Origin: a virus
Lineage: Duplodnaviria > Caudoviricetes
Virus record (IMG/VR): IMGVR_UViG_3300037782_000174
Span: 1-44,270 of that record
Length of the DNA: 44,270 nt
Direction: 5' to 3' (one strand)
How positions within the stretch are numbered: the first letter of the stretch is position 1; each line of letters starts with the position of its first letter. The notes under the pieces were generated by a model. The model was not told the DNA's origin. It saw only the letters and a program-made list of their open reading frames with translations, and did no database searches. A program made the position numbers and the translations under genes. This document shows positions 13,169 through 43,773 of the stretch, piece by piece.

Positions 13169-13525
13169 ATGAAGGCTTTGCTGATTCTGGCTGTCACTGC
13201 CACCTTTGCCATCGACGGCGACACGATCGAGGTCGCAGGCGAGCGCATCCGCATTGCCAACATCGACACCCCGGAAATCCACCACGCACAATGCGATGCC
13301 GAGCGCCGGCTCGGCCTGGTTGCGAAACGGCGCGTCGAAGAGCTGCTGGCACTCGGCGCAATTGTTGTTACGCGTGGTGACCCGGATACCGGCCGAATGA
13401 AAGACCGCTTCGGCCGCACTCTGGCTGTGGTTTCGGTGCACGGCCGTGACATTGGGGACATGCTGATCGCAGAGGGTCTGGCACGCAAATGGGCCGGCAA
13501 GAGGGAGCCCTGGTGTGAGCGGTGA
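13169..13525 (+). CDS. Thermonuclease (SNase) family protein with signal-like N-terminus
   Basis: IDGDTI, RIRIANIDTPE, DRFGRTLA and LIAEGLAR motifs. Confidence 0.9.
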   Translation: MKALLILAVTATFAIDGDTIEVAGERIRIANIDTPEIHHAQCDAERRLGLVAKRRVEELLALGAIVVTRGDPDTGRMKDRFGRTLAVVSVHGRDIGDMLIAEGLARKWAGKREPWCER

Positions 13526-14288
13526 GTACGAGAAGTCCGCAGACAACAATGTCGAGCACGTCATCGCGAACGCACGGCGACTGATTGATGACGCACGACT
13601 TATACTAAAGGGAGGTGGAAGCCATGGCACAGCGCTGGCTCTTGCTATCCTTGCATTTGAGGAGATCGGTAAGGGGCACGGCCTCGAAATGCACGCAACA
13701 AAAACCAAGTACACTCCGTCGTGGCATCAGTTCCGCCAGTCTCTAGCAGCCACCTTGATGATCCTTTCCCTATTTCAGAAATATGGGATTGCTACTCCTG
13801 AGTTTAGCGAAGCTGCACAATCGCTTTCCAAGAAGCACCGCGGACGCCACAAGAGCCTTTCTGAAATGGCAGCTGCGCCGATTCCTGAAGACTATCGACG
13901 CGAAATATCGGCGGCCTTAGAGGGAAAATTGCCGCCGCTGACCACGCTGGAATGGGCTCGGTTTGACGTGGAGCGGAGGTGGGTCTCGAAGGTAATGATG
14001 GAAGCCTACAGGGGAGACCTGGAAAAGCTACGCCAGCAGGCCATCTACGTCGACTTCAATGATGATGCGGTGTCGACGCCAGAAAGCATTTCGGCACTGG
14101 AGGCCGAGCGATGGATACTGGTTGCAGAGCGGGCGCTGGTGCTTCTGGAAACTGGAGATTTCGAGCTGCCGTATAGTCCGCTGGCAGAGCATCTTGAGAA
14201 AACCGGCGCTGATCCCTTGGAACTGCTCGAAAAACTAAAAAAACAGTTGGGAGAGATCGCCGAGGGCGAAACCCCTGATACTCCCTAA
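13515..14288 (+). CDS. AbiV-family (HEPN) abortive-infection-like protein
   Basis: NARRLIDDA.L......TALALAILAFEEIGK, conserved H (WHQ) and LRQQAIYVD; lower GC and atypical codons relative to its neighbours. Confidence 0.75.
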   Translation: MSGEYEKSADNNVEHVIANARRLIDDARLILKGGGSHGTALALAILAFEEIGKGHGLEMHATKTKYTPSWHQFRQSLAATLMILSLFQKYGIATPEFSEAAQSLSKKHRGRHKSLSEMAAAPIPEDYRREISAALEGKLPPLTTLEWARFDVERRWVSKVMMEAYRGDLEKLRQQAIYVDFNDDAVSTPESISALEAERWILVAERALVLLETGDFELPYSPLAEHLEKTGADPLELLEKLKKQLGEIAEGETPDTP

Positions 14289-19926: not shown

Positions 19927-21576
19927 ATGGCACCGACACCGCGGCTTCTCGACCAGTGGGGCAAACCGGTCTCGCTCACATCGCTCACCCAGGAGTTCGC
20001 CGAACCGACGCGCGCTTCCATCAACTCTGTGTGGACCGAAAGCGTAGCGACGGCGATGGACCCGATCGCGCTCGGCGAAATCCTGCGCCAGGCAGCGCGC
20101 GGTTATCCCGACCGGTTCTTCGTACTGGCTGAGGAAATGGAGGAGCGCGACCTGCACTACGGTTCGGTGCTCGGCACACGCAAGCTCGCCATCACCGGAA
20201 TAGAGCCGATCGTGGTTGAAGGCGGTAAAGACGCGACCGCCAAGCGCATCGCAGAGGTGGTCGGCGAGCTGGTTGCCGAGCCGGAGTTCGTCGACGACAT
20301 GATCGCCGACCTGCTTGACGCGCTCGGCAAGGGCTATTCGCTTGTCGAGACGGTTTGGCAACGTTCGGCCAGTGAGTGGTGGCCGAAGGCTTACAAATGG
20401 CGTGACCAACGCTTCTTCCAGCTCGACCAGGTGGACGGTCGTACACTTCGCAAGAAGTCACCAGGTTCCGCCGATGGCCTCGATCTGCCACCGTTCCTGT
20501 TCGCCATTCATCGGCCCAAACGCAAGTCCGGCCTGCCGATCCGTGGCGGGTTGGCGCGGCTCGCAGCATGGGCGTTCCTGTTCAAGCACTATTCGCTGAA
20601 GGACTGGATGGCCTTCCTGGAAGTTTACGGCATGCCGCTGCGCGTCGGTCGCTTCGGCCGTGGGGCCAGCCACGACGACAGAAGGGTCTTGCTCAAAGCG
20701 GTGCGCGATATCTCGACCGACGCAGCCGCGATCATCCCCAAGGAGATGGAGATCGAGTTCATCGAAGCCAAGGGCGGTGGTAGCGGCAGCGGCAACGGAT
20801 TGTTCTCCGGGATGGCCGAGTATCTCGACAAGCAGATGTCGAAGGCGGTGCTCGGCCAGACTATGTCGACCGATGACGGCGCTTCGCTTTCCCAGGCGAA
20901 AATCCATGAGAACGTACGCCACGACATTGCCCGCGCCGACGCCAGGCAAGTGGCGGTGGCTGTCAACCGTGATCTAATCCGACCGTTCGTTGACCTGAAT
21001 TTCGGGCCGCAGGAGCGCTACCCAACCGTTGTCATTCCGGTCATCGAGAACGAGGACGTTAAGGCACTGGCAGAAATCGTTTCGACGCTGGTTCCGCTGG
21101 GCATGGAAATCGGCATGGCGAGCCTGCGCGAACGGCTCGGCTTCGAAGACCCCGACGAAGGTGACGTGCTGCTCAAACCCGCAGCGTCGTCTAAGCCCAA
21201 GCTACCGAACAAGCCAGGCGCGGAAAACGACAACCTTGATGATGATGAAGGCAGCCAGGACAACAAGGCGGCGGCGCGAAGGCTTTCTGCCTGCCCGCAT
21301 TGCGGTGGGCATCACGCCCTTGCGGCCGAGCAGCTGCGCGACCAGGACGAGCTTGACCTTCTGGTTGAGGAGGCCTTGTCGCACTGGCAGCGCGACATGG
21401 ACCCGATGATGGAACCGCTGCGCCAGCTCGTCGCGCGATCGGCGAGCTACGAAGAATTACTCGCCGGACTGGAGCAGCTGCGCACCGGCTCTTCAGGAGA
21501 ACTCGTGGCCGCGCGGATCGCTGAGCTGCTGATGAAGGCGCGCGGCCTCGGGGATATCGCCCAGGGCCGGAGCTGA
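19927..21576 (+). CDS. Portal protein (DUF935 / Mu gp29)
   Basis: LAEEMEERDLH, FLEVYGMPLRVG and MSKAVLGQT motifs. Confidence 0.93.
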   Translation: MAPTPRLLDQWGKPVSLTSLTQEFAEPTRASINSVWTESVATAMDPIALGEILRQAARGYPDRFFVLAEEMEERDLHYGSVLGTRKLAITGIEPIVVEGGKDATAKRIAEVVGELVAEPEFVDDMIADLLDALGKGYSLVETVWQRSASEWWPKAYKWRDQRFFQLDQVDGRTLRKKSPGSADGLDLPPFLFAIHRPKRKSGLPIRGGLARLAAWAFLFKHYSLKDWMAFLEVYGMPLRVGRFGRGASHDDRRVLLKAVRDISTDAAAIIPKEMEIEFIEAKGGGSGSGNGLFSGMAEYLDKQMSKAVLGQTMSTDDGASLSQAKIHENVRHDIARADARQVAVAVNRDLIRPFVDLNFGPQERYPTVVIPVIENEDVKALAEIVSTLVPLGMEIGMASLRERLGFEDPDEGDVLLKPAASSKPKLPNKPGAENDNLDDDEGSQDNKAAARRLSACPHCGGHHALAAEQLRDQDELDLLVEEALSHWQRDMDPMMEPLRQLVARSASYEELLAGLEQLRTGSSGELVAARIAELLMKARGLGDIAQGRS

Positions 21577-21580
21577 GCCG

Positions 21581-22780
21581 GTGGCCGAGCTATTTGCGAC
21601 TGCACCGGACGAAGTTGTCCGCTATTTCCGCTCGAAACGATCGCTGCCTTCTTTCGATTGGCGCGATGTCGCGCCGCATGAGCACGCCTTTTCCTGGACC
21701 GTTGCCAAGTCGATGGAGCAGGATGTGCTGGAAGACATCCGCGCGGCCGTCGATGACGCCATCGTCAACCGGACACCTTTCGACCAGTTCGCCAAGCAGC
21801 TCACGCCGATCCTTCAGGAGAAGGGTTGGTGGGGAAAGGGCATCCAGGCGGACCCGAGAGACGGCTTGCCGCGCGTCGTGCAGCTTGGCAGTCCGCGCCG
21901 GCTCAGAACCATCTATTGGGCGAACGTGCGCAGTGCCCATGCCGCTGGCGAATGGGATCGCACGCAACGCAACAAGCGCTTCCTGCCCTTCCTCCTCTAC
22001 ACGTTAAGCCAGGCCGAGCGTCGCCGGCCGGAACATGAAGGCTGGGTGGGGATCGTACTTCCGGTAGATGATCCATGGTGGGACACTCATTACCCGCCGA
22101 ACGGATGGGGCTGCCAGTGCGGTGTGCGGCAGATATCGGAGCGCGAGGCGCGCCGGCTTGGCTGGTCGGACGGCATGGAAGGCCCGCAGATCGTGATGCG
22201 CGCCTGGAAGAACCGCCGCAGCGGGGAAACAGAGATGGTGCCGCTTGGCATCGATCCTGGCTGGGCCACCAATCCGGGCAAGAACCGCGCTTTGAACGCC
22301 GCCGAGTTTCTGCACGGCAAGCTCGGCGGCCTGACCGCCAACCGTCAGCGCGTGGCAATCGAGGACATCGTCGGCTCTCCCGCGTTTCGCGCGCTCGCCG
22401 AAGGCAAGTCGCCGGCCATGTCGTACATGCCGGTCGCGCAGATCGGCGAGGCGGTAGCCGAAATCTATGGCGGGCGGTCGGGTCCGGTCCTGTTGTCGGC
22501 CGACAGTGCCAGGCACATTCTCGACCACCCCGGCAGGCGCGGTCTGACAGTCGATGATCTGCGCGCGGCACTCGCCATCATTGCAGCGCCCGCGGCAATC
22601 ATCCGAGGTGATGCGAGTGCCTTGTTCCTCGGCGAAGCGGGCGGCACCTGGTGGCGCGCGGCTGTGAAGAACGTGCCGGTGCGAAACGAATGGTGGCTTA
22701 CAAGCTTCCATCGCAAGAACGCGGACGAAGCGCGCAAGATGATCGAGCGCGCAGAACGGGCAGACAGACGGTTGCGGTGA
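21581..22780 (+). CDS. MuF (gp30) minor head protein with C-terminal PBECR/BECR-like nuclease extension
   Basis: MuF core: LGSPRRLRTIY, RRPEH..W.G..LPVDDPWW..HYPPNGWGCQC, GIDPGWATNPG. Extra ~130 aa: VLLSADSARHILDH...LFLG....WWRAAVK.....EWWLTSFHR. Confidence 0.85.
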   Translation: MAELFATAPDEVVRYFRSKRSLPSFDWRDVAPHEHAFSWTVAKSMEQDVLEDIRAAVDDAIVNRTPFDQFAKQLTPILQEKGWWGKGIQADPRDGLPRVVQLGSPRRLRTIYWANVRSAHAAGEWDRTQRNKRFLPFLLYTLSQAERRRPEHEGWVGIVLPVDDPWWDTHYPPNGWGCQCGVRQISEREARRLGWSDGMEGPQIVMRAWKNRRSGETEMVPLGIDPGWATNPGKNRALNAAEFLHGKLGGLTANRQRVAIEDIVGSPAFRALAEGKSPAMSYMPVAQIGEAVAEIYGGRSGPVLLSADSARHILDHPGRRGLTVDDLRAALAIIAAPAAIIRGDASALFLGEAGGTWWRAAVKNVPVRNEWWLTSFHRKNADEARKMIERAERADRRLR

Positions 22781-22782
22781 AA

Positions 22783-22850
22783 AGGCACGGCGGGGCGTCA
22801 CTCCCGCACGGGTCCGGCAAAAACCGTCCCGGTTGAACTGGCTCGCGCCT
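22783..22850 (-). ncRNA. Putative tRNA-like small RNA convergent on muF
   Basis: 7-bp acceptor-like stem, anticodon-like arm and a 5-bp T-like arm directly adjoining the acceptor 3' strand. A G-U pair forms only on the - strand. It has its own promoter candidate. Confidence 0.6.
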
Positions 22851-22856
22851 GCTCGC

Positions 22857-22885
22857 AATATGATGCATGTTCGCGCTCTGAGCAA
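22857..22885 (-). promoter_or_regulatory. Sigma70-like promoter for the tRNA-like RNA
   Basis: On the - strand: TTGCTC (22885-22880), 17 bp, CATATT (22862-22857). Predicted +1 at about 22850, the first base of the stem. Confidence 0.6.
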
Positions 22886-23093
22886 CTGCGGCCGCGCGTG
22901 CGTCCTTGCGCTCACATCTCCCGAAAATACACGTCGGAAAAAACCGGCCGCACAAGCTCGCGGGCGGCGTTTGCGGCCAGTGACACGCGATCACCCCTCG
23001 ATTGCGCTTCTAGGGGCCTTCAAGAGCCTTTAGAGATAGGTTCAAGCTGCCGGGGAGGAGCGGGTGTGAACATCCGGGGCAATCAGCCGCTCC

Positions 23094-23108: not shown

Positions 23109-23145
23109 GGCGGATGCGGAACGCGAAGCAGTGAATTTGTCGCCC

Positions 23146-24255
23146 ATGACGAAGGCGACGGCAACAGCGATTTTCAACACCGATCTGGCGAGCGAGGCGA
23201 AAGCCGCGCCCGACTGGGTCGAACTCTTTCCGGCCGGTCCCGAAATCCAGGCCCGTGATGGCCGCAAGTGGACGGCTGATCCCGCCGCCGTGCTTGCCTC
23301 CTTTCAGGCAAACAATGGCCCGCTGGCGATCGACTACGAACATGGCCAGGACATTCTGGCTGAGAACGGCCAGGAGGCGCCGGCAGCTGGCTGGATTATC
23401 GAGTTGGATGATCGAGCCGGTGCTGTATGGGCCAAGGTCGAGTGGACCGCCCGTGCCGCCAAGATGATTGCGGAGCGCGAGTACCGCTACCTTTCGCCAG
23501 CCTTCAATCACACCAAGGATGGGCGCGTTTCGGGGTTGCTCGGCGCTGGCCTGGTCAACCGCCCGGCGCTCGTGATGACGGCGCTGAGCCGAAAGACTTC
23601 CAAAACCAATGAGGAAAACGACATGAAGGCAATCGCCAAGGCGCTCGGCCTCGGTGAGGACGCGGACGAAGCCGCCATCCTCGCCGCGATCACCGCGCGC
23701 GGCACCGAGCAGACCGAACTCTGCAAGGCGCTGAAGCTCGACCCGGAAAAGGCGGACGCAGCGGCCGTACTGGCTGCGATCAGCAAGCTGGCCGGCGACC
23801 TGGAAACGGCAACCGCACGTGCCCAGGGCAAGACGGAAGGCGGCGATGCCGAGCTGGCGGCGCTCAAGACCCAGCTCGCCGACACCCAGAAAGCACTCAC
23901 GTCGCTGCAGAAGAAGGACGCCGATCGCGAAATCGACGCAGCACTCGATGAGGCTGCCTCGGCCGGCAAGATCACGCCGGCTTCTCGCGAAACCTACCGT
24001 GCCATGTGCGCGACGGATGGTGGACTTGAACGCTTCAAAGCGCTCGCGGCCACGCTTCCGGTCATCTGCGATCCGACCGATCTGGACACGTCGACCGCTA
24101 CCACCACGGGCGCCGACGACGAAGACCCGGTCGCACTCGCCGCCCGTGCCCGCAAGTACCAGGACGAACAGTGCGCCGCCGGCCGCAACATCGATACCGC
24201 AACCGCGGTCATCGAAGTGAAGGCGGGAGCGGACAAGAAGGAGACCGCGAAGTGA
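23146..24255 (+). CDS. Mu-like prohead protease I with probable nested scaffold Z
   Basis: IDYEH, APAAGWI, VEWT..A...I..REYRYLSP and GLVNRPAL motifs; internal RBS and ATG at 23623. Confidence 0.92.
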   Translation: MTKATATAIFNTDLASEAKAAPDWVELFPAGPEIQARDGRKWTADPAAVLASFQANNGPLAIDYEHGQDILAENGQEAPAAGWIIELDDRAGAVWAKVEWTARAAKMIAEREYRYLSPAFNHTKDGRVSGLLGAGLVNRPALVMTALSRKTSKTNEENDMKAIAKALGLGEDADEAAILAAITARGTEQTELCKALKLDPEKADAAAVLAAISKLAGDLETATARAQGKTEGGDAELAALKTQLADTQKALTSLQKKDADREIDAALDEAASAGKITPASRETYRAMCATDGGLERFKALAATLPVICDPTDLDTSTATTTGADDEDPVALAARARKYQDEQCAAGRNIDTATAVIEVKAGADKKETAK

Positions 24256-42966: not shown

Positions 42967-43773
42967 ATGCAGATCGACACTGAATTCACAGCCGTTCGGC
43001 CTGTCAGCCCGGTGGCGGGCTACATCGGAGGCAAGCGGCGGCTCGCCGCGCGCCTGGTTGAACGGATCGCGGCCGTGCCACACCGAACCTATGCTGAGCC
43101 GTTTGTCGGCATGGGCGGCGTGTTCTTCAGGCGCCCGTCGAAGCCGCCGGCCGAGGTCATCAACGACCGCAACGGCGAGGTGACCAATCTCTTCCGCATC
43201 CTTCAGCGGCACTATCCGCAATTCATGGAAACGCTTCGTTTCCAGATCACGTCGCGGACAGAATTCGAGCGGCTGAAGGCCAGCGATCCGGCTACCCTGA
43301 CCGATCTCGAACGCGCCGGACGGTTCCTCTATCTCCAGCGCACCGCTTTCGGCGGCAAGGTGGCCGGTCAGAACTTCGGCGTCGACCCGCGCTCTGCCGC
43401 CGGGTTCAACCTTGCTCGCCTGGCTCCATTGCTGGATGAAGCGCATGAGCGACTTGCCGGCGTCGTCATCGAGAACCTCGACTGGCAGGATTTCATCGCC
43501 CGCTACGATCGCCCCGAGACGCTGTTCTACCTCGACCCACCATATTGGGGGTCGGAAAGCGACTACGGACGGGCGCTGTTCTCCCGCGACCAGTTCGACC
43601 TTCTGTCAGACGCTTTAAGGGGGCTCAAGGGCCGCTTCATCCTCTCGATAAATGATGTGCCGGAGGTCCGGGAGATGTTTGCCTGGGCAACGATCGAGGC
43701 TGTCGAACTGCTCTACACGATCACTGGCGGCCGCGGAACGAAAGCGAGAGAGCTGATCATCTCCTCTCCCTAG
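42967..43773 (+). CDS. D12-class N6-adenine DNA methyltransferase (mom position)
   Basis: YIGGKRRL, YAEPFVGMGGVF, EVIND and FYLDPPY motifs. Confidence 0.93.
   Translation: MQIDTEFTAVRPVSPVAGYIGGKRRLAARLVERIAAVPHRTYAEPFVGMGGVFFRRPSKPPAEVINDRNGEVTNLFRILQRHYPQFMETLRFQITSRTEFERLKASDPATLTDLERAGRFLYLQRTAFGGKVAGQNFGVDPRSAAGFNLARLAPLLDEAHERLAGVVIENLDWQDFIARYDRPETLFYLDPPYWGSESDYGRALFSRDQFDLLSDALRGLKGRFILSINDVPEVREMFAWATIEAVELLYTITGGRGTKARELIISSP

Follow-up and report, generated by a model that had tools for sequence, protein, structure and literature searches.

Type III toxin-antitoxin systems (ToxIN, CptIN, TenpIN and AbiF) place a structured, pseudoknotted RNA beside the gene for a ribonuclease (RNase), and this RNA inhibits the protein directly. 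The architecture of tRNA recurs in other settings, such that the tRNA-like domain of transfer-messenger RNA (tmRNA), bacterial Y RNAs and D-armless tRNAs all join a 7-bp acceptor stem to a 5-bp T stem and have the D arm reduced to a loop; tRNA is also a target, with the CdiA-CT toxins of E. coli NC101 and K. pneumoniae 342 cutting its acceptor end. In the head module of temperate phages, MuF polymorphic toxins combine a MuF1 domain with a C-terminal effector-type extension and have a partner directly downstream, which in the accessible part of Jamet 2017 (PMC5576092) is an immunity protein; proteobacterial MuF extensions without known domains are left outside testing in that same part. For the related PBECR and MuF-C domains (PF18810, PF18812, PF18819), the portion of Iyer 2017 available to us (PMC5512222) suggests mRNA or CRISPR RNA as targets of PBECR, not tRNA, and leaves an RNA partner unmentioned, and in the accessible text of a more recent preprint PBECRs are placed in the colicin-like BECR group, whose studied members are mostly tRNA cutters (bioRxiv 10.64898/2026.08.28.747851). 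Here we consider a locus in a viral DNA of 44,270 nucleotides (nt; IMG/VR record IMGVR_UViG_3300037782_000174, its whole length being referred to as ‘the window’), in which a muF gene ending in a PBECR-like predicted RNase domain is followed, on the opposite strand, by a tRNA-shaped RNA element with a promoter motif of its own. Its parts are as follows.

21581..22780 (+): muF, open reading frame (ORF) for a minor head protein of 399 aa, between portal and I protease
22343..22777 (+): C-terminal PBECR-like (colicin-like BECR) predicted RNase domain, residues ~255-399, from structure comparison
22514..22528 (+): candidate catalytic His312 (invariant) and His316 (variable), at or immediately past the helix that precedes the core
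22783..22850 (-): tRNA-shaped RNA element, 68 nt, from minimum-energy fold and comparison; begins 2 nt past the muF stop
22844..22850 (-): 5' strand of the acceptor-like stem, 7 bp, pairing with 22783-22789; compensatory change in 6/7 pairs
22832..22843 (-): stemless D-replacement region of 12 nt (17 nt in some copies)
22838-22836 with 22799-22797 (-): 3-bp kiss between GUU of the D-region and GAC of the T-like loop; 74/75 cells paired
22809..22831 (-): anticodon-position arm of 4 bp, a 1x2 internal loop (A opposite GA), 3 bp and an apical loop; 4/7 pairs compensatory
22790..22807 (-): T-like arm with a 5-bp stem and 8-nt loop, continuous with the acceptor 3' strand; 3/5 pairs compensatory
22857..22885 (-): sigma70-type promoter motif, TTGCTC (22885-22880), 17-nt spacer, CATATT (22862-22857); predicted +1 at or near 22850

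Judged by comparison of sequences, the 68-nt element is real, conserved and covarying, and lies on the minus strand behind its own promoter motif. Amongst loci gathered by protein only, it is present in 38 of the 41 that have this MuF C-terminal domain and a readable stop, and is separated from the muF stop by -2 to 12 nt in all but one of the 38 (which include the same contig in two collections and hold 26 distinct sequences). Of the three loci without a call, L090 carries an RNA of the sister family described below, L110 a variant with a 9-nt loop (E 8e-6), and L111 a weak model match at 2441-2504 (+; E 0.0016), the only copy seen on muF’s own strand. Alignment of 25 of the 26 distinct copies, leaving out the shorter form of L089, finds 98.0% of the 550 cells generated by 22 named pairs to be paired, versus 89.3% in shuffles, with 0 of 500 shuffles scoring as high; the shuffle test ignores kinship, and slid controls, which keep it, pair at 42-51%. 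Change on both sides is seen for 14 of the 22 pairs, and RNAalifold recovers the same 19 nested pairs unprompted. Folded as a single sequence, 22850-22783 gives a weak signal (z -1.39, with 20/200 shuffles folding equally well). Separately, L089 (2630-2766, -), from Candidatus Tokpelaia, carries two tandem copies of the RNA behind one promoter.

The acceptor-like and T-like stems stack as 12 bp, the terminal pair of the former being broken in 7 of the 25 aligned copies, and a single linker base separates the T-like arm from the anticodon-position arm. The middle pair of the kiss is U-A in 16 aligned copies and G-C in 8, and its outer two pairs change together in copies outside the alignment (L110, L123, L125 and L126, read by inspection). 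The loop at the anticodon position is variable, with 17 forms among 25 copies, which speaks against an anticodon decoy of the colicin D/E5 kind. A first-pass annotation of this DNA had put forward a tRNA mimic that binds or decoys the nuclease. The position and sequence given in that annotation are as we find them, and the fold that it drew is identical to the minimum-energy structure; saying this, its ‘anticodon-like’ loop is not conserved, and the kiss between the D-region and T-loop had been missed.

Strand and promoter can both be read from the same comparison. On the minus strand, the aligned copies have 26 G-U pairs versus 3 A-C pairs. The promoter motif of the window ends 6 nt ahead of the first stem base, has 7/12 consensus matches and is unflagged by a strict promoter scanner, and the motif in general form (TTG-17 nt-NANNNT, mostly CATATT) precedes the stem by 6-8 nt in 22 of the 26 distinct copies, versus 1.5% of shuffles; its spacer is always 17 nt long, with most spacer columns less than 55% conserved. 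At the other end of the element there is no conserved terminator, and most copies are without a U-tract behind them. In an 87%-identical relative, the alignment to the window stops at 22851, with 84 nt (22852-22935) swapped for unrelated sequence, such that conservation ends at the first base of the RNA. Contigs of the 87%-identical relative were also found in two metatranscriptome runs holding a small share of the region, at flat depth, from which strand and level are unreadable. On all three of these counts, namely preference for the minus strand, a TTGCTC-17-CATATT promoter, and conservation with covariation amongst homologues, the first-pass annotation is borne out.

Of the features expected of a tRNA, the element has an acceptor stem of 7 bp stacked on a T stem of 5 bp; a D stem, a fixed 7-nt anticodon loop, a canonical T loop and any match to a tRNA model are lacking. 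ARAGORN, run for both tRNA and tmRNA, returned no match in the window or in 32 related loci, and Rfam 15 no family at gathering score in the window or 20 related loci, nor in 8 more at E 1. The 3' flank of the element is not CCA, no CCA is encoded, and pair 3 is G-C in 23 of 25 copies, so the element is neither a decoding tRNA (rejected on the variable anticodon-position loop and missing CCA) nor a tmRNA domain (rejected on the absence of G3-U70, a CCA end and a tag frame, together with the negative ARAGORN tmRNA search). It likewise differs from the tRNA mimics introduced above, that is the tRNA-like domain of tmRNA, Y RNAs and D-armless tRNAs, by its Watson-Crick kissing elbow and by its lack of G3-U70, CCA and a tag frame.

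Kinship with tRNA is supported by the existence of cloverleaf relatives. In a sister family the cloverleaf is complete, D stem included, and comes with the same internal loop and a kiss of 5 bp; its D stem, kiss and arm are paired in 98% of 460 cells, where the scan pattern fixed part of the D arm and the free tests are the arm and four protein-first rows, two of which change the kiss on both sides. The pattern scan took in 120 of about 260 IMG/VR matches, and removal of 10 duplicates and 38 with a short flank leaves 72; among these listed matches, the sister RNA stands directly after a BECR-type domain in 64, with 1 elsewhere and 7 without such a domain (3 of the 7 look like chance), and the strict promoter motif precedes 25 of the 64. 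Compared with L058, both sides of the 5-bp kiss have changed at L051 (3646-5118) and L055. Closer still to tRNA are elements in Mu-like prophages of E. coli, which form a near-canonical cloverleaf, and in Pasteurella phage Pmp9; both have the canonical D- and T-loop motifs. RefSeq annotates the E. coli element as tRNA-OTHER, on the minus strand directly after the stop, and its region matches 231 of 5426 E. coli genomes. With the element of Haemophilus phage SuMu, a kissing form, these relatives make up a series from the near-canonical cloverleaf to the D-armless kissing form.

The model of the sister family (R2) does not match the window RNA and that of the window’s own family (R1) barely reaches the others; as the two miss each other’s families, common descent is argued from architecture, position and orientation. 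A BLAST search of the RNA elements against plasmids, phages and E. coli matched only Ochrobactrum phage POA1180. The description of the element as tRNA-shaped, made in the first-pass annotation, agrees with these cloverleaf relatives, one class of which already carries the label tRNA-OTHER. One further weak R1 match in the window (43356-43423, -; E 1.2) lies inside an adenine methyltransferase gene and is probably chance.

The protein partner is best recognised by its fold. Pfam gives no match for the C-terminal domain of this MuF at E 0.05, and the domain scores below every PBECR model, its homologues giving sub-threshold matches to PBECR3. The structure model (pLDDT 89.8) comprises a helix and a meandering four-strand sheet in a BECR-like fold; rows of the ESM Atlas place it with PBECR3/PBECR2 (TM 0.68-0.80), and MuF-C and nuclease proteins were matched in BFVD at E 1e-5. 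Best amongst folds in the PDB are 7vd7 (Z 6.5), CdiA-CT NC101 (5i4q, Z 6.0) and BrnT (Z 5.3), the top rows being mostly RelE, ParE-like, CdiA, BrnT and colicin chains. CdiA-CT of K. pneumoniae 342 (6cp9), colicin D and colicin E5 follow with Z 4.4, 4.2 and 3.9, respectively; both CdiA toxins and both colicins have protein immunity partners and are 6-13% identical to the phage domain. His312, Lys363, Ser375 and Lys379 are invariant in 27/27 close homologues, His377 is another candidate catalytic residue, and the sister group has Lys and His at the columns of His312 and His316. The window domain agrees with the arrangement of PBECRs, a His plus Ser/Thr, in the accessible portion of Iyer 2017 (PMC5512222). 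Taken together, structural modelling supports the C-terminal domain of MuF as a PBECR-like predicted RNase, in keeping with both the extra C-terminal domain and the BECR-type kinship (PBECR, RelE, colicin D/E5) anticipated for it at first pass.

With a MuF domain and a C-terminal effector-type domain in the head module of a temperate phage, the window has the domain architecture of a MuF polymorphic toxin; no conserved small immunity ORF was found directly 3' of muF across the 41 loci, and it is the RNA element that holds this position. Two ORFs of 66 aa are present after muF in the window, but ORFs of this spacer are without conservation amongst homologues, and the region is replaced in the 87%-identical relative, as described above; the earlier view that no credible immunity ORF follows muF agrees with this lack of conservation.

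The RNA accompanies the nuclease when approached from either side. In a scan starting from the RNA, 20 of the 21 matches in IMG/VR face a MuF-BECR gene convergently. Starting from the gene, with promoter and closing helix both required in 67 distinct muF flanks (another being too short to use), the element was called in 10/17 PBECR3-like, 4/11 MuF-C-like, 0/11 short MuF and 0/5 other extensions, these classes being drawn from Pfam and our own profile with many assignments sub-cut-off and three rows by inspection, and two of the MuF-C matches being mis-delimited parts of real elements. Controls gave 44/1340 for shuffles and 16/418 for other ORF stops, three of the latter being the same elements. 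When two displaced copies, three model matches and one descriptor match are counted as well, the PBECR3-like total rises to 16/17, leaving phage B23 as the sole locus without the RNA and the only one of 11 aligned without the Lys/His motif.

A similar picture emerges for MuF-C domains (n=17), in which the RNA, as called by a loose descriptor, is found with 11 of the 12 that have the predicted catalytic His and with none of the 5 that lack it (Fisher p 0.001, uncorrected for kinship); in the His-bearing exception, the Ser/Thr of the last strand is also missing. The six RNA-less rows do not form one clade, requiring at least 3 changes (p-AU 8e-36), and in five of them the next gene lies within 9 nt, the sixth ending its record. 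Phage Mu itself belongs here: gp30 is without both His and RNA, with gene G overlapping its stop, and its domain is called inactive in the accessible part of Iyer 2017 (PMC5512222). A relative that is 52% identical to gp30 in this domain has both. In two loci (L051 and L055), a 437-aa ORF with no Pfam match stands between muF and the RNA, and the RNA is retained with its promoter 1.4 kb away, which fits with action in trans. The first-pass expectation that the RNA would occur only beside nuclease-bearing MuF is upheld in part, by the 0/11 for short MuF and the link to His, and is complicated by orphan copies that lack a nuclease gene.

These orphans came to light in model searches, which match 5/151, 4/151 and 3/41 sampled genomes. 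In this set of 11 new copies, a full MuF-BECR gene lies opposite 3, a long ORF with a BECR end opposite 1 and a BECR remnant opposite 1; the orphans sit in reduced Mu-like elements or between host genes, and have the strict promoter motif in 4/8 cases and a relaxed motif in 3 more. Such copies show an RNA worth keeping alone, and fit with either stolen immunity or an independent job. In two reduced Mu-like elements (L288, from G002:C42, and L152), the RNA closely precedes a mor-like gene, after which come genes for the tape measure, head protease and major capsid; there is no MuF of this family, and both look like satellites of Mu-like phages. On host chromosomes, an intact orphan with a promoter-like motif (L127:1501-1568, +) lies between a gene for an NtrC-type regulator and ntrY, and RNA and promoter are convergent on a BECR remnant of 67 codons near a topoisomerase gene at L131:1501-1780. 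At L091, muF is broken, RNA and promoter are intact, and the locus adjoins an AbiEii gene and a CRISPR-like repeat region. Weak model matches without the fold (L135 and L136) were excluded.

Bringing these findings together, we propose that the element encodes a small RNA that binds and restrains the predicted RNase fused to MuF, a reading that we favour with moderate confidence and in which the role of antitoxin is a plausible one; comparison establishes the fold and strand of the element, its promoter motif, the D/T-loop kiss and the association with His-bearing nucleases. The promoter motif is independent of the late operon, and host sigma70 polymerase would make the RNA both in the lysogen and straight after DNA entry, with trimming presumably halting at the acceptor stem. 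Through its 12-bp acceptor-T stack and elbow, the RNA might then mimic tRNA, and in the absence of CCA and a fixed anticodon the nuclease would be bound unproductively; we suggest the stack and elbow as the binding face because conservation covers both of them and the internal loop but leaves out the anticodon-position loop. The nuclease itself would likely be a tRNase that reads either the elbow or the acceptor end; it would be produced late and probably travel with the virion, such that the RNA could protect the producing cell, lysogens of its siblings and the newly infected cell, from the place where other MuF toxins have a gene for protein immunity. More tentatively, and with rather less confidence than we have in the restraining role, we speculate that a whole superfamily of tRNA genes, carried by Mu-like phages of Proteobacteria and further afield, has been domesticated as RNA immunity against the virion-delivered tRNases of a polymorphic toxin system, passing from cloverleaf to D-armless kissing form and being stolen along the way by satellites and host chromosomes, which it would shield, on its own, from the injected nuclease.

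Several observations weigh against this proposal. Fold scores to solved tRNases are modest (Z no higher than 6.5), and Foldseek against the PDB gave nothing under E 0.001 for the domain. In the gene-first test, MuF of the PBECR2 type has the element in only 1 of 18 flanks and PBECR2+3 in 0/5. The loose descriptor used for MuF-C has a background of about 20% (34/170 shuffles) and weakly calls one RNA-less row, so that these RNA calls lean on inspection and gene spacing. Amongst 22 close homologues, RNA identity follows the N-terminal part of MuF (rho 0.66) more closely than the nuclease (rho 0.35), and a mirror-tree test gives a partial correlation between RNA and nuclease of 0.05 (p 0.33), hence no signal of cognate coevolution. 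No BECR gene adjoins 6 of the 11 new genome copies, and four host genomes with orphan copies are without a MuF of this family, though these genomes may be incomplete. Joint loss of RNA and His would be just as likely were the nuclease to mature the RNA. Lastly, a plus-strand ORF follows the RNA promoter in several homologues and is a possible immunity protein; it has a signal-peptide-like start in L001, L083, L087, L106 and L107, and the protein from L001 has no match in Pfam.

Some of these points would be expected if the RNA were the effector, acting as a decoy for host enzymes that cut tRNA in defence or for proteins that bind the elbow, with the PBECR domain serving to trim or release it. 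The joint loss with His fits such a maturase, as does the lack of fine-scale coevolution between RNA and nuclease; the 3' end, with no conserved terminator or CCA, would call for processing, and most orphan copies, whether in reduced Mu-like elements or on host chromosomes, keep a strict or relaxed promoter motif. Those same orphans, however, would work without a cognate nuclease, which weakens the need for a maturase, 20 of 21 viral copies stay attached to the gene, and a host-type promoter on one side and a muF in the late operon on the other would rarely be active together in the lysogen; we regard this explanation as unlikely, albeit the strongest of the alternatives. It is less probable again that the two form a non-toxic ribonucleoprotein, in which the domain uses the RNA as a scaffold or virion cargo for head assembly, DNA ejection or a first step following entry. 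Strict pairing of gene and RNA across divergent families would suit such a particle, the His at the binding face could serve RNA binding, and the DUF3800, drum and skipping-rope RNAs are each tied to one nearby protein in the accessible part of Weinberg 2017 (PMC5737381), but phage Mu, JBD67, MuM16-1 and short-MuF phages all form virions while lacking the RNA, whose promoter is not in the late orientation.

Control in cis, which we consider similarly improbable, would have the convergent promoter damp leaky expression of muF through antisense read-through or polymerase collision, the tRNA-like fold being a handle for stabilisation or processing. That the element abuts the stop codon in 37 of the 38 loci, with no U-tract behind most copies to prevent read-through into muF, is as this explanation would have it; against this, the RNA and promoter persist at 1.4 kb from muF, as tandem copies and as orphans, and an antisense leader would have no need of a conserved tertiary kiss and internal loop. 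That the element is a decaying tRNA pseudogene, or an integration scar travelling with Mu-like heads, is very improbable indeed, in spite of the canonical D- and T-loop motifs of some relatives and their annotation as tRNA-OTHER, as it is contradicted by covariation, with compensatory change seen in every helix and in kisses of two different geometries, as well as by the conserved promoter and by conservation that stops exactly at the RNA 5' end in the close relative.

Turning to the wider setting, Pfam annotation identifies the window as a Mu-like temperate phage, with genes for a repressor, transposase, MuB, portal, MuF, I protease and tail. The Phage_Mu_F domain occupies residues 52-182 of MuF (E 2e-13; PHROG 220), GP04 of Ochrobactrum phage POA1180 is 60% identical to this MuF, and the named hosts of close MuF relatives are alphaproteobacterial. 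On either side of muF lie:

19927..21576 (+): portal gene, Pfam Portal_Mu (E 6e-107)
23131..24255 (+): Mu-like I protease/scaffold gene, Pfam Mu-like_Pro (E 5e-59); the next real gene, 350 nt after muF

An AbiV-family HEPN gene (13515-14288, +; E 8e-17) between the early and lysis regions is a possible defence moron. Elsewhere, a structured element of another sort, having a short motif in common and a promoter-like site in reverse orientation, was seen by eye after muF of the PBECR2 or PBECR2+3 type (L023, L030, L045, L046, L049 and L050), and in two Helicobacter Mu-like prophages with a PBECR-like MuF (L282 and L283) there is a hairpin and a longer structured region of yet another type on the minus strand.

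Set beside the systems with which we began, the module stands apart, because a conserved immunity ORF and a type III repeat array are both missing from it. MuF polymorphic toxins have protein immunity, in the accessible part of Jamet 2017 (PMC5576092), and here there is a conserved, opposite-strand, non-coding tRNA-shaped element. The likeness to type III toxin-antitoxin systems extends to a structured RNA beside an RNase gene, and the covarying D/T-loop pairing answers to their pseudoknotted RNA; however, theirs is an upstream, co-transcribed repeat array acting on a stand-alone toxin, and ours a single tRNA-derived RNA (L089 has two) that lies downstream, runs convergently from a promoter of its own and stands opposite a fusion to a virion protein. 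The DUF3800, drum and skipping-rope motifs are structured RNAs tied to one protein domain in either orientation and of no known function, as far as the accessible text of Weinberg 2017 (PMC5737381) goes, but their proteins are different and they often end in a terminator, and the present element has no Rfam match. The module is undescribed in the literature searched, subscription papers and supplements lying outside its scope, and a tRNA-shaped element beside MuF-PBECR goes unmentioned in the accessible parts of PMC5737381, PMC10690425, PMC13502914, PMC4406740 and bioRxiv 10.64898/2026.09.22.753630; these RNAs could nevertheless be amongst the 10,006 anonymous viral RNA candidates in the available portion of PMC10690425. 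We are dealing with a widespread and apparently undescribed tRNA-like RNA module tied to active-looking MuF-PBECR nucleases.

MuF is a head protein widespread in phages; no role is known for its C-terminal extensions in Proteobacteria, and PBECR domains are without a known substrate or regulator in the literature as far as it was accessible; a tRNA-shaped partner beside His-bearing domains points to tRNA as the substrate. If the antitoxin reading is true, the module would work like a type III system, and would be at once a polymorphic-toxin immunity factor made of RNA and an antitoxin derived from tRNA; we found neither described in the literature searched. It would also explain the recurrent tRNA-OTHER annotation, along with the lack of both His and RNA in phage Mu, and the series from canonical elbow to Watson-Crick kiss would be a natural record of a tRNA turning into a mimic.

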